Origin: Marsupella aquatica
Lineage: Eukaryota > Plantae > Marchantiophyta
NCBI GenBank assembly: GCA_973895155.1
Contig: OZ316895.1
Location: forward strand, 13,317,186-13,381,185
Direction of reading: 5' to 3'
Length of the DNA stretch: 64,000 nt
Position 1 is the stretch's first letter, and the number at the start of each line of letters is the position of its first letter. Of this stretch, positions 1 to 16,625 are shown piece after piece. Below the pieces are notes generated by a model. That model did no database searches, had not been told where the DNA came from, and saw nothing but the letters and a program-made list of their open reading frames with translations. The position numbers and the translations under genes were made by a program.

Positions 1-3000
1 GGTAGTTGCTTTTCTAGCTGCTGCCTTTTTCTTCTTAACCTCCTTCTTTTGAAGCTCCTCTTGCCGGGCCGCCTCCTGCCGGGCCGCCTCCTTCTTTTGA
101 AGCTCCTCTTTCCGGGCCGCCTCCTGCCGGGCCTCCTCTAGTCGGGCCGCCTCCTGCCTGGCCTCCTCCTGCCGGGCCGCCTCCTGCCGAGCCGCCTCCT
201 GCCGGGCCTCCTCCTACCGGGCCTCCTCCTGCCGGGCCGCCTCCTCTCTGGCCTCCTCCTGCCGGGCCGCCTCCTCTTTGGCCTCCTCCTGCCGGGCAGC
301 CTCCTCTCGGTCCACCTCATGTCGAGGCTCCTGTGTGGCCTCTTCATCAGAGTCCTCAGCGTCCTCGGAACCCTCCATCTCCTCGTCCTCTTCATCAGCG
401 TTCTCAGCGTCCTTCATCTCCTCTCCGTCACTCTCTTCATCTCCTCTATTGTCGAAATCTCCGACGTGGTTCTGCGTATCGGTCATCCACTCTGGATCTT
501 GGTCATTGACATCCCCATCCGCGTCACCTTCCGCGTCATCTTCCCCCTGACCATCCGCATCACCATTGCTCCCTGCATCCTCAACATTGAAGCCGCAGTT
601 GACTTGATCTGAATAAAATCAGATCATTTGATAAGAATGACTCACGCGCATATTCGCGTGAAAAGAAATGTTATGAATGTCCACGCGCATGTTCGCGTGA
701 CGCAATAAAAAGTAAGAGGTTTCAAAAGTAACTTACCTTGGATTGGCCCACTAGGGTACTCCGTTGGTCGAATGTACAATCGATTGGAATCTTCAGAGAG
801 TGCATACTCTTGCAATAATTGATTGCAAATATTATCAGGGAAATGTTGTTCGTGGAGGACATCCAAAACATCAGCCCTGAGAGCAGTTACGGATGGATGG
901 TACTTCATTAATTTATCTATACATTTTTCTATACTAGCCCATACTGGGTCAATCAATGACAACGTTGTATCAATTGTCGCCGTGGTGTGTTGCAAGAAAC
1001 AAGACAACTCCCTATGCGTTGCCACAGGGCAATAATATTTTACATTGGATCCAGCATCCTGTAAAAAAAGCCAAAATTAGTTCACAATATTAATTGAGAA
1101 TAAAATAATCTAAATAATCTTAAAATCGAAACCCCAAAATATAAATCTCAAAACTTACCATTAAGCACTGGATCAAGTTCGTTCCCTCACCGAAGCATAT
1201 AGCCCATTCCCCACATTGGACGAATTGACTAACAATACTTTCAAAGAATGGAAGTATCTTTTCTGGGGAAGGTGTCGTGAACTCGCCGCTCTCTTCAAAA
1301 TTGGCTATCTTCTCAATCTGATATTTGGAGACCAATTGGAACTCGAGGGCTTGTGGATCGCCCATTGTGCTAAAGGCCAAGCTGTGAAAAGCGTAGGTTA
1401 CAATAAGCTTCTTCTCCTTTGGCCGCTTCTGAATATAATGGCTATCGACATCAACGTAGTGTGTGTACTTCCCTAATTCCCGTTTGATTAAGTAAGACTC
1501 AACGGGAGAGGCTACAATAATAACCACATGTTGTGGTTTTGCCCATATCTCGCTAGTAGCACGAAATAACCCCTCATAGAATGAGCAATTTGGCGGACGC
1601 AAATCTCCCATTGATGAGGGATCAAAATAAATCAAGCTCGCAAGGTTCTTGTCTTCACGTATGATACAGTCTGCAAACCCAGCATTTTGTATATCCTGTA
1701 GGGATTGCAATTTCAGCCTCTCACCGACCGGCCGCACTAGTTGGTTTCCTTGACTATCAACTGATTTCTGTATTCCTTCAACCAACCTGTAGAATATAGG
1801 GTCGATCTCCTTCAACAAATTATCATTACTAATATTTACATTTAAGCACTTCTTCAGATAACCACTCAACGCATCTCTCAACTGCTTCAGCACCATCTTG
1901 TCGAGCTTAAAGCGATCAATCATTCCTTTGACCCGCAATTTCCGCGCTGAATCTGTCAGACTTTTTAGCTCCGTCCGGGTGGATGTTTCCCCATTGAGTT
2001 TACTCAATAATAAAATCTCAAACTCAACTTTTGTCTTCTTCTTTATACAGAATTGCTCCTGACTCATGTTGGTCGTTGACAACACTGGAGCCTCAGAGGA
2101 CTTCCTCGCCTTCCCAAATTTCACTTTGATGCTTCGGTTTTTGAGTATAGACAGTCTTCCGCTCAACATATATTTCGCTGCCTTTCAAAGAACCGAGTCT
2201 GAGCACCCTTGACAAGAACGGAACATCTTCTTTAGAAGATGATAAGCACACGGATTATCCGCAATTTTGACGGCGTCCCTCTATAAAATTCCGTTGTAAA
2301 TTGCAAGCTCTCCTGTCCTTGATAGTTCGTAGACCTCCATCCACTTCTTGAATGTTTCGTCCTCCATTGTAAAGAGAAACGGAGCTAATTCTCCAAATTT
2401 CATCATTTCGTTCTTCCCCATTTGAGCCCATGAGCAAACAAAACTCGTAGCTCTCATAAATACCTGAAAAACAATGGAAACATGACAATTCTAAGCTTGG
2501 CGCAACCGGTCGCGTGACAAAAGTTTATACGATAATGTGATCGAAGAGGGTTATTTATATACCTTCCAATTTGGATGACGATAATGTGATCCAGGCCGCC
2601 CAAATGAGTTCCAGATATTACGACACTATCATACAATGGTGAGAAACTGTCCTTCTTCCATTGATGTTTGATGATAGTGGTTTAGAGCTTTCGATAATCC
2701 CATCAAATGAACATTATTGTCGTTGTTGAGCGTTGCCCAAAACATTACAGCTTCTATAGTACCGCAAGCGTCTCGTACAACTTGGCTGATTTTGTCGTCC
2801 TCTCTCAGCAATTTGTACGCCATTATTGTGTGCTAGCCTCCGAGTATCCAGAAATGACTGGTCATAATGTCCTCCTCCTTTGGCGATGAATCGTAGGGCG
2901 TCCCATTGTAGTCGGGATCTTTGTCGGCCTCCGACTGAACCCACTTCACAGGGACTAAAAAGCAGCATCGCTTCTCAAACTTTATAGTCGAATGAGAGAG

Positions 3001-3801
3001 GAGTGAATTCTTTAGCCTATCTGTGTAATCTTGATTCCACTCTTGGCACTTGATGTGGTCCGGTGCAAGATGAAAACGTGATGTCTCAACAAAAAATGAC
3101 TTGCTGTTAAATATATTCACAACACTATATTCTTTGAGGAAAGAATCGAACAGAGCCCCGACATTCGCTGAGGTAATTACTTTTGGAAGATTCTCCGCCG
3201 AGTATACTTCAACCTTGCTAACTGGCGGGGCCTTTCCCAAGCGAAATCCCTGGCTGAAAGGAACTCTCCGGAACTCAAGTACGTCAATAATGTATTGACA
3301 AATCAAATCTCCTGTTGATGCCTCTGGATCGGAAGGATATCCCACACTAGTAACCTTTTCCAAGGCGTGCCTTGCACCTAGAAGATAATCGATTCTGGGC
3401 TGATTGAAGGTTACATATTGCGTTCGATCCAAACAAATGCTTATTTTGTCTTCCTGCTGGTCGTCGCTGACTAGCAGAACCAATCCCTCTGTACACTCTT
3501 TAACTTTCATGTTCTTCTCAAAGAAATATCCGAGAATTTTTTATCTCTCCAAAACTGTAGCTTTATCATTTCTTGCCACCACAAGACGGACAGCCCCATT
3601 GCGAACGACTATTCCAAAATCGGATATCTCAGTCGATTCAAAGAGATGGATACTCTTTGTCTCCGTTGTTCTCTCTCTGATTGACTTTCCTCGATATGCA
3701 AGTATGGATGTCTCCGGAGGAGTCATTTTTGTCTTGGTTTTCTTTCGAGAAGCAGCTTTAGACGAGTCTCTTTTCCGCTTTGAGGTTCCGGTAGGATCCA
3801 T
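1..3801 (-). pseudogene. Multi-exon ParB/Srx-like + amino-DNA-methyltransferase-like + acidic/charged-repeat protein, disrupted; continues past left edge
   Basis: ORFs 3541-3801, 2833-3510 and 2629-2823 are one frame across single stops (HFWILGG*HTIMAY). GT-AG introns at about 2562-2465, 1158-1059 and 736-609; the last two join ORFs 1120-2169, 642-1025 and 214-486 in frame. Motifs LIYFDPSS and FFESIVSQFVQCGEWAICFGEGT. Probable frameshift near 2260-2300. Confidence 0.6.
47..305 (-). repeat. Coding minisatellite of 15/18-nt units (EEAARQ) giving an E/R/K-rich helical tail
   Basis: Repeated gccgggccgcctcctc(c)t on the plus strand; minus strand reads EEAARQEEAKEEAARQ. One unit has TAG where the others have CAG (214-216). 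Confidence 0.85.
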
Positions 3802-3876
3802 TCTGAAACAGACAAATATTGAAAGTTAAACGTTTATTATAAAATACTAACACGCGCATGGTCACGTCGTGCCGAA

Positions 3877-15176: not shown

Positions 15177-15597
15177 TGTTGAGCATAGACGACGATCGCA
15201 ACGGCAAGCCCATGAACCATCCAACGCACAATAGTCGACACAAGAGATACGTGGTTCACCTCCTTGAGGCTACGTCCACGGGAACACACAAGAGAGCTTT
15301 ACTGAACTCTAAGCCCGTCGGCTATACCGAGTCTCCACAGTGTACGCTCTCCCTATCTCTCAAGTGGCTCCATAACAATGAGCCTTGGTTCTACCTCTCC
15401 AAGCACACATGCCTCTTATGACATAGTGTGCAACTTAGTTGTACCTAACCACATAGTTGTACCTAATCACGTAGTTGTACCTAACCACATAGTTGTACCT
15501 AATCACGTAGTTGTACCTAACCACGTAGTTGTACCAACCCACGTTGTTGTACCAACCACGTCATACCTAACCTAGACGTAAGAGTAAATACCCAACA
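15177..15597. mobile_element. Solo LTR (421 bp) inserted in the last transposase exon
   Basis: TGTTG...CAACA termini with a perfect 5-bp TSD TGTTT (15172-15176 and 15598-15602). Removal restores the frame LDVYPVHMGLVV. Contains about 7 copies of an 18-bp repeat (acgtagttgtacctaacc) at 15435-15570. Confidence 0.9.
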
Positions 15598-16029
15598 TGT
15601 TTATCCCGTCCATATGGGGTTAGTTGTTACAGATGTGGTAGAAGGACCAGTGAATGAACAAAACCTTCTTACTCATGTATGTGGCGTTGAGTGGTTTAGA
15701 TCATTTATGGCAAAGAAGCAACGTGGTCAATCAGACTGGCAGCCAAGAGAGCGGTGGGCAGATTCTTGGGATAAGAAATGGGAACGTGATCCATCTCCAA
15801 TATACAAGGAAGCTGAGACAATAGATGTTTCCTCTGCCTTGTGGTGTTTCAAAGCACGCAAAGGACCAGTGACAGGGCTGGTAGGAATTCCAAAGAATGT
15901 TGCTGTCAAGGCAAGAGACTATCTCTTGACATGCATAGCAAGTGACAAATCCTAGACAGTAATGAAGCATGTAGTTTAGCATACAGTTTAAAAGGCAACT
16001 CAGAATAGTAGTAGCCAGAGAACTCAAGT

Positions 16030-16625
16030 TTAGACAAGTCTTATCGTCTAAGTTAGTTAGTTGGTTAGTTTATTTAAGATATAATATTAGTTAGTGGGGC
16101 CTTAGTTTGGTGATATTAAGGCATGATATTATTGACATTCAAATGAATGTCCAGTAGACATTGTAATATACAACAATCCTATTAATAAATAATAATTATA
16201 GTTACACCCTCAAGTGAACTCAACTTTCAATGATTTCTGATTTTATATGGTTCCATGCCTGATTGAGTCAAAGCAATAGAAACTAACTAATTAAAGGGTG
16301 ATACTATAATTGTAGGTCACGCACCCTGGTGGGTGTCAATCTTTTTTGTATTCAACCCTATAGTAATTAAATAGACAAGTTAGTTAGTTGGTTAGTTTAT
16401 TTAAGATATAATATTAGTTAGTGGGCCCTTAGTTTGGTGATATTAAGGCATGATATTATTGACATTCAAATGAATGTCCAGTAGACATTGTAATATACAA
16501 CAATCCTATTAATTGTTGTAAAGAAACTAATTAATTAAAGGGTGGTACTTACTATGATTGTAGGTCACGCACCCTGGTGCGTGTCAATCTTTTTTGTATT
16601 CAACCCTATAATAATTAAATAGACA
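16030..16625. repeat. Direct duplication downstream of the transposase, with a palindrome variant
   Basis: About 16050-16185 recurs at 16377-16512, and about 16279-16378 at 16522-16627. CACGCA-ccctgg-TGCGTG at 16566-16583, with a degenerate copy at about 16318. Confidence 0.85.

Follow-up and report, generated by a model that had tools for sequence, protein, structure and literature searches.

Why would a DNA transposon of a plant carry both a gene for a ParB-like protein and 28 copies of a single palindrome? The question is raised by a 64,000-nt window (the whole stretch of DNA that was analyzed) from the liverwort Marsupella aquatica (assembly GCA_973895155.1, contig OZ316895.1, positions 13,317,186 to 13,381,185, forward strand), at the left of which a giant transposon-like unit combines a DDD/E-type transposase gene with a cargo of F-box-like, cysteine-rich and ParB-like genes. 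The answer we tentatively favor, at somewhat less than an even chance, is that the palindromes are bound by an element-encoded protein, most likely the ParB-fold one acting without a cytidine triphosphate (CTP) clamp cycle, and that the cargo is thereby kept unmethylated and expressed. By analogy, the best reading is a VANC-like self-recognition and anti-silencing system that would have been built from unrelated, phage-type parts.

The palindromic sites and the element

We searched the window for CACGCG-N6-CGCGTG; with at most one mismatch there were 13 matches, none of them outside 643-12,026, whereas shuffled sequences predict 0.01. Allowing two mismatches raised the count in 1-16,625 to 22 and left the other 47 kb without a match; at three, the counts were 26 and 5, respectively, reproducing the figure of about 26 given in an earlier note on this DNA. 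A weight matrix returned 28 sites scoring at least 11.3 (643-16,583; 18-bp consensus SACGCGAC-YR-GTCGCGTS), and the best score elsewhere in the window was 8.8, so that within the window the palindrome is indeed confined to the 16-kb unit. A constant 6 nt separates the half-sites, and these inner bases are largely palindromic too. Copies within two unrelated tandem arrays, each built around the site, account for 17 of the 28, and by their flanks the 28 sites form 12 clusters. Predicted coding DNA, which makes up 53% of the unit, holds none of them (p ~1e-4, treating the 12 clusters as independent). Three cargo ATGs instead have a site 40-50 nt before them, two introns of the ParB-like gene contain sites, and the final 250 bp of the element are site-free. 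A VANC-like placement, with sites only in non-coding DNA and amplified in tandem arrays, is thus borne out within this window. The sites are as follows (no strand assigned):

643..699, two sites (643, 682) in predicted intron 3 of the ParB-like gene
2499..2516, one site in predicted intron 1 of the ParB-like gene
3851..3868, one site that precedes the ParB-like start codon by 50 nt and seems to be conserved in homolog P0013
5050..5067, one site ~40 nt upstream of the ATG of F-box open reading frame (ORF) 2
5666..6701, tandem array 1 with 12 sites, periods of 80/107/189 nt, the first site ~40 nt upstream of the ATG of F-box ORF 3
9333..10231, tandem array 2 with 7 sites, period ~250 nt, its unit unrelated to that of array 1
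11748..12026, two sites (11,748, 12,009) that precede the transposase gene; just past them the CpG-rich zone stops
16318..16583, two degenerate subterminal sites (16,318, 16,566) near the right end

The unit, called transposon-like in the earlier note, is a multi-copy element with a sharp end, apparently of the inverted-repeat type, and it is larger than was stated there:

1..16842, no strand assigned, decayed copy of a multi-copy giant DNA transposon, delimited by contig depth; its left end lies beyond the window edge
16823..16843, plus strand, right terminus, ending ...AAATTGGGG(T), delimited by contig run-off and by a short derivative in runs X3/X4

Summed contig depth was at least 4,800 in every bin up to 16,675 and 61-100 at 17,343-18,009 (runs X1 and X2, whose contigs showed zero differences from the unique flank and which may include the source of this DNA). 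The drop mapped to 16,838-16,878 in four runs from two studies, with a depth of 0-129 past 16,879 in all four, and in contigs leaving the element unrelated, varied flanks begin behind 16,843-16,847. The first bases of the short derivative (X3, X4) are the reverse complement of the element's right end, which is likely a terminal inverted repeat. Depth in a single contig or at a single position was 16-37x that of the flank in eight of nine picked ratios and 67x in one, ratios that are not copy numbers; in run X2, single-contig depth was similar at 7.1 kb (16x) and near the right end (19x). None of the five right-flank starts, a biased set among the matches listed (TTAT, TTGA, TTTA, TTAA, TTTG), fits AWWT, the 4-bp target duplicated by Sola1 transposons. 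Rfam had 0 matches in 1-17,500. In X5 and X6, which come from other organisms, low-depth pieces are 95-99% like both cargo and transposase, and more diverged relatives of the transposase are much deeper than these pieces.

The ParB-like gene

Four predicted exons with GT-AG introns join the ParB-like gene into one frame of 1,159 codons within the window, with 7 in-frame stops:

2563..3801, minus strand, exon 1, predicted PH-like domain (~aa 37-188) and ParB/Srx fold (~aa 232-381); 4 in-frame stops
1159..2463, minus strand, exon 2 with 2 in-frame stops, comprising a helical part and a degenerate part that is amino-methyltransferase-like
737..1058, minus strand, predicted exon 3, end of the methyltransferase-like region, between GT-AG introns
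1..608, minus strand, predicted exon 4, acidic stretch and 15-nt repeat (EAARQ-like); leaves the window; 1 in-frame stop

Homologous ORFs are interrupted at the same first intron, and homolog P0033 reads across the junction of exons 1 and 2. Among 1.84 billion representatives searched, exon 1 had 31 matches at E ≤ 0.001, two of which (P0015 and P0026) were dropped as unrelated. Exon 2 had 2 homologs by a near-length search and 0 when the search was limited to longer proteins. Ten homologs were looked up, and the liverwort Calypogeia fissa is the source of one cargo-protein homolog. Homologs P0006 and P0048 each have a longest contig of 9,396 nt, and these may be one contig. Across the site-bearing intron at 3,803-3,874, F-box ORF 1 could be joined in frame to the ParB-like gene to give an F-box-PH-ParB fusion; the alternative is an intron of the 5' untranslated region.

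Exon 1 is predicted to combine PH-like and ParB/Srx domains, and structure comparison of its model (predicted local distance difference test score, pLDDT, of 81) supports the ParB-like assignment of the earlier note. Foldseek against PDB returned ParB, Noc, PadC and sulfiredoxin (best E = 0.007), and comparison with BFVD returned phage and viral ParB-like proteins (E = 1.2e-4). In VIA-align the top 8 rows were all of the ParB/Srx family (Z 8.0-5.2), the best being PadC (Z 8.0, root-mean-square deviation 3.1, 97 aligned) and the second KorB (Z 7.8). Residues 37-188 were PH/PTB-like by the same tool (Z 4-5), and helices come after the ParB/Srx fold in the model. Sequence searches of Pfam, PHROGs, NCBIfam and PDB gave no significant match for the gene, and locus searches found none in viral or prokaryotic contigs and one short, uninformative metagenome contig. 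A dioxygenase-like assignment of exon 1, suggested by weak atlas rows under 0.8, was dismissed as noise.

The palindrome appears to have been kept at the same intron position in a diverged homolog, P0013, which is 46% identical to exon 1 over its best stretch. The read-through of its upstream intron back-translates to the consensus site with a score of 26.0, the next best among 44 proteins being 18.8, and 15 shuffles of their 13,019 residues gave 0 hits at 26. The putative site lies 47-64 nt above the likely acceptor in P0013 and the site at 3,851 lies 49-66 nt above its own, that is, within 2 nt.

Downstream of the ParB/Srx fold, a motif IV-like element is followed by a motif I-like one, the order of beta-class amino-methyltransferases, and hhalign set SLIYFDP opposite DLIFADPPY with 11 beta-class enzymes as the reference. 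The putative catalytic motif is degenerate in all three sequences (DPSS, DCSV and DSTL, vs (D/S/N)PP(Y/F/W)), and the putative cofactor motif reads FGEG and FSEG in the two sequences that reach it, vs FxGxG. The exon 2 model (pLDDT 40) gave no fold match, and an exon 2 homolog gave no usable atlas hit. The motif order fits the methyltransferase likeness proposed earlier, a weak claim: the profile match is not significant (probability under 1%), the catalytic motif is absent in 3/3, and an active methyltransferase is not supported by these sequences.

CpG content, transposase and remaining cargo

With the palindromic sites masked, the CpG observed/expected ratio (o/e) was 0.82-1.01 in most cargo segments, 0.25-0.36 over the transposase and 0.06 at the 3' end, the change being abrupt at 12.1-12.2 kb; synonymous-position CpG tests gave p = 1e-4 and 3e-6. 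The last 887 bp of the element contain 4 CG dinucleotides, 3 of which fall in the two subterminal sites, which make up 4% of that stretch. For comparison, a host gene in the window had a CpG o/e of 0.60 and 0.75 in its two long exons. CpG retention in the cargo suggests that the active lineage kept the cargo unmethylated for long, although the cargo may instead have been captured recently from a CpG-rich donor.

Host factors could account for such a pattern if the palindromes were transcription-factor sites (inverted CGCG-box/N-box-like halves) acting as promoters or enhancers, with transcription keeping the cargo unmethylated. CACGCG/ACGCG half-sites do resemble plant CAMTA and bHLH motifs, and the sites lie just upstream of start codons and in introns. 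Host genes of early-diverging plants are moreover described as being without gene-body methylation (bioRxiv 2021.02.12.428880, excerpt). We consider this account rather unlikely: the 6-nt spacing is fixed with inner bases mostly palindromic, the full 18-bp site was not found near host genes in the other 47 kb of the window, and the cargo exceeds the two long exons of the neighboring host gene in CpG o/e.

An autorepressor role, in which the ParB-fold protein would act in the manner of KorB or DndB to limit cargo and transposase expression and would not oppose silencing, fits the second rank of KorB among the structural matches and the position of sites at gene starts and in the ParB-like gene's own introns. 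A GQH motif also recalls DndB, a ParB-like repressor (PMC12704722, in part). The DndB-type motif arginine is missing, however, and 12 kb of retained CpGs are left unexplained by repression alone, making this role quite improbable.

The transposase gene and the cysteine-rich ORF supply the other candidate binders:

12132..15955, plus strand, DUF7869 DDD/E-type transposase gene with one predicted intron (~14,041-14,240), 2 in-frame stops and a solo long terminal repeat (LTR) insertion
10434..10976, minus strand, cysteine-rich ORF, intact, 180 aa, with a CxxC...CxxxxC cluster and basic stretches

The DDD/E transposase of the earlier note is confirmed by a Pfam match to DUF7869 (E = 2.5e-37), which we take to be a transposase domain. 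The motifs HDKMD, LDN and HEDVD are common to it and its homolog P0003, and a search limited to longer proteins gave one homolog. Its intron contains telomere-like CCCTAAA repeats (14,145-14,200) and, at 14,172, a second AAATTGGGG, the terminal motif. The cysteine-cluster ORF is likewise present as described and had no family match.

Either protein might bind the sites and activate its own copies, leaving the ParB-like gene as a passenger with another job, which we regard as unlikely. In its favor, the transposase has sites to its left and right, some of them close to the right end, the cysteine-rich ORF is intact, and a plant transposase alone is reported to activate cognate copies sequence-specifically (preprint 10.64898/2026.08.24.746577, abstract). 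Against it, introns and the DNA just before cargo genes hold most of the sites, at distances of 4-16 kb from the right end, the terminal 250 bp lack them, and the sole conserved site seen in a homolog adjoins the ParB-like gene.

A further reading involves no recognition system at all. Tandem amplification could have produced the palindrome incidentally, or the unit could be a composite in which an older transposase element was recently joined by a CpG-rich one; the share of array copies (17/28), the abrupt CpG boundary and, in X5 and X6, transposase relatives far deeper than the cargo all point that way. Set against this are the 12 flank clusters and the complete avoidance of coding DNA, the sites on either side of the transposase, the comparable single-contig depths of 16x and 19x in X2, the apparent conservation of a site in P0013, and a terminal motif with no internal copy at the CpG boundary. 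We judge such an origin very improbable.

The remaining features of the unit are three F-box-like ORFs and a nested retroelement remnant:

3877..4410, minus strand, F-box-like ORF 1, weak F-box match
4442..5010, minus strand, F-box-like ORF 2, weak F-box match
5074..5627, minus strand, F-box-like ORF 3, weak F-box match
15177..15597, no strand assigned, solo LTR from a separate high-copy retroelement, nested in the unit, with TG...CA ends and a 5-bp target duplication

The F-box-like ORFs are paralogs, the other two being 31% and 20% identical to ORF 1. All three match F-box profiles as the earlier note proposed (E 0.004-0.016), although none reaches the curated Pfam cut-off, and the best PDB match for an F-box-like ORF was an F-box chain at E = 0.61. 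The solo LTR, which does not figure in the earlier note's account of the unit, was recognized by a joint skipping 426 nt and by loose contig ends at 15,176-15,177. Its 18-nt tandem repeat (15,436-15,561) has a unit with AGTTGTAC, an 8-mer identical to a VANC6 target motif (PMC5735166, in part), a match that is probably due to chance. Among 18 ORFs scanned there was no VANC-related Pfam match, VANC itself not having been directly compared. The spacer at 6,800-9,250 is CpG-rich and site-free, with broken reading frames and (GAGCGA)n at 7,787-7,837, and from its sequence it may be home to further decayed cargo genes.

Beyond the element, the window contains inverted-repeat pairs resembling miniature inverted-repeat transposable elements or small non-autonomous transposons (28,468-28,696; 35,486-36,592; 44,971-46,185). 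It also contains a PIE1/SWR1-like host gene for an SNF2-type chromatin remodeler at 48,387-63,054, with a 1,267-codon open frame (56,254-60,057).

Candidate mechanism and known systems

Several observations weigh against binding of the palindromes by the ParB-fold protein and protection of the cargo. Structurally, the top VIA score (Z 8.0) comes close to what the tool calls common, the PDB Foldseek match of the exon 1 model falls short of E 0.001, and we identified no helix-turn-helix (HTH) or C-terminal dimerization domain, a region that spans an intron and for which the exon 2 model is poor. Box II reads GGQHT, DGQHS or similar and never GxxR in all 14 readable homologs (of 26). Those ParB folds that have been tested require the GxxR arginine to bind a nucleotide (PMC12704722, in part), and in its absence a canonical parS-type CTP clamp is not supported. 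The methyltransferase profile match has a probability of 0.5-0.6%, equaled in 3 of 40 shuffles. As for CpG content, some cargo is lower (0.76; exon 3, 0.65; array 1, 0.42), the site-free spacer at 6.7-9.3 kb is as rich in CpG as site-near DNA, and the transposase is CpG-poor despite sites on both its sides. The P0013 evidence is one back-translated peptide. Among the run contigs examined, no listed one joins cargo with transposase, and internal deletion joints are present in element contigs; co-occurrence of the two is therefore supported by similar depth only and not directly. Finally, changes in the arms of the sites are C>T or G>A in 20 of 22 cases, and of eight located stops seven fit CG/CHG deamination. 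A CG/CHG context also holds for 11 of 20 window-versus-family transitions selected among the top matches listed (p = 0.026). The copy in the window, itself methylated and decayed by C-to-T changes, is dead or dying, so that protection, if it exists, is not absolute.

In the favored mechanism, the ParB-fold protein would bind the palindrome as a dimer and, because the Box II arginine is missing, would stay at its sites as a shield or a recruiter and not slide along the DNA as a clamp driven by CTP. Should the methyltransferase-like domain be real, it would be catalytically dead and might serve in DNA or cofactor contact. Protection from 5-methylcytosine (5mC) would explain the retained CpGs. 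The F-box proteins may target host factors via SKP1-cullin-F-box (SCF) complexes, the weakest step of the proposal. It is improbable, in our view, that a phage-type ParB-methyltransferase fusion, unrelated to VANC, has become a eukaryotic counterpart of parS loading, in which the protein would load at the palindromes, spread over ~12 kb and shield this DNA from 5mC.

VANC proteins lower methylation and bind to short motifs that lie in tandem repeats, introns and intergenic DNA, and the Marsupella element resembles VANDAL/VANC in being a large DNA transposon with accessory genes, in the placement of its motif and in its signs of local escape from CG methylation (PMC5735166, in part). VANC motifs are 8-9 nt and asymmetric, in contrast to the 18-bp palindrome here (same source, in part). 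The candidate binder also has a predicted ParB/Srx fold, with no VANC-like domain found. VANDALs, moreover, are Mutator-like, whereas the transposase here is of the DUF7869 type.

A predicted ParB/Srx fold and repeated palindromes of similar length are likenesses to bacterial ParB-parS, KorB, Noc and DndB (PMC12704722, in part). Unlike bacterial ParB, the protein lacks the Box II arginine, has no ParA and no identified HTH or dimerization domain, and is encoded by an intron-containing eukaryotic gene with a PH-like N-terminus and an acidic repeat tail. Phages often carry fusions of ParB with an N6/N4 methyltransferase (PMC12704722, section 7, in part), and phage and prophage fusions share the order of a ParB fold followed by motif IV-like and motif I-like elements (excerpts of PMC12704722 and PMC4738411), although here both motifs are degenerate and the profile match is not significant; we retrieved no close viral or prokaryotic relative. 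Marchantia DN4MT1 and rotifer N4CMT, as excerpted accounts describe them, share the theme of a bacteria-derived amino-methyltransferase in a eukaryote that is tied to transposons or tandem repeats. They are, however, enzymes of the host whose catalytic motif is intact (SPPY in N4CMT), whereas the gene here is element-borne and without the motif.

Sola elements likewise have a DDD/E-type transposase, have been reported in a moss and in some cases exceed 15 kb (PMC10741241 and PMC3845634, in part), so that size alone is not new. Excerpts of the same descriptions contain no such cargo, and AWWT is absent from the few flanks read here. Pfam was without a Sola profile as of PMC5751038 (excerpt). 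Titles and the starts of abstracts, a scope outside which lay Repbase, most subscription papers and the supplements of PMC4738411 and PMC12704722, yielded no plant transposon with ParB-fold cargo, and none of ten papers listed for this combination mentions DUF7869. What appears new is that cargo and transposase differ in CpG content and that a 46%-identical homolog seems to have a site at the same intron position, and a new variant of transposon self-recognition is plausible.

Even should the mechanism fail, our searches gave no description of the element and its protein family (~29 homologous fragments). Transposons that counter silencing sequence-specifically have been described chiefly for Arabidopsis VANC and Spm TnpA. 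The way in which methylation is removed or blocked in such cases is still an open question (PMC5735166, in part). If our reading is true, an early-diverging plant would hold a second solution, unrelated to the known ones, that pairs a single defined 18-bp site with a candidate binder whose fold is prokaryotic. The ParB fold would then have a part in the control of eukaryotic transposons, and the system might offer a programmable means of keeping a locus unmethylated.

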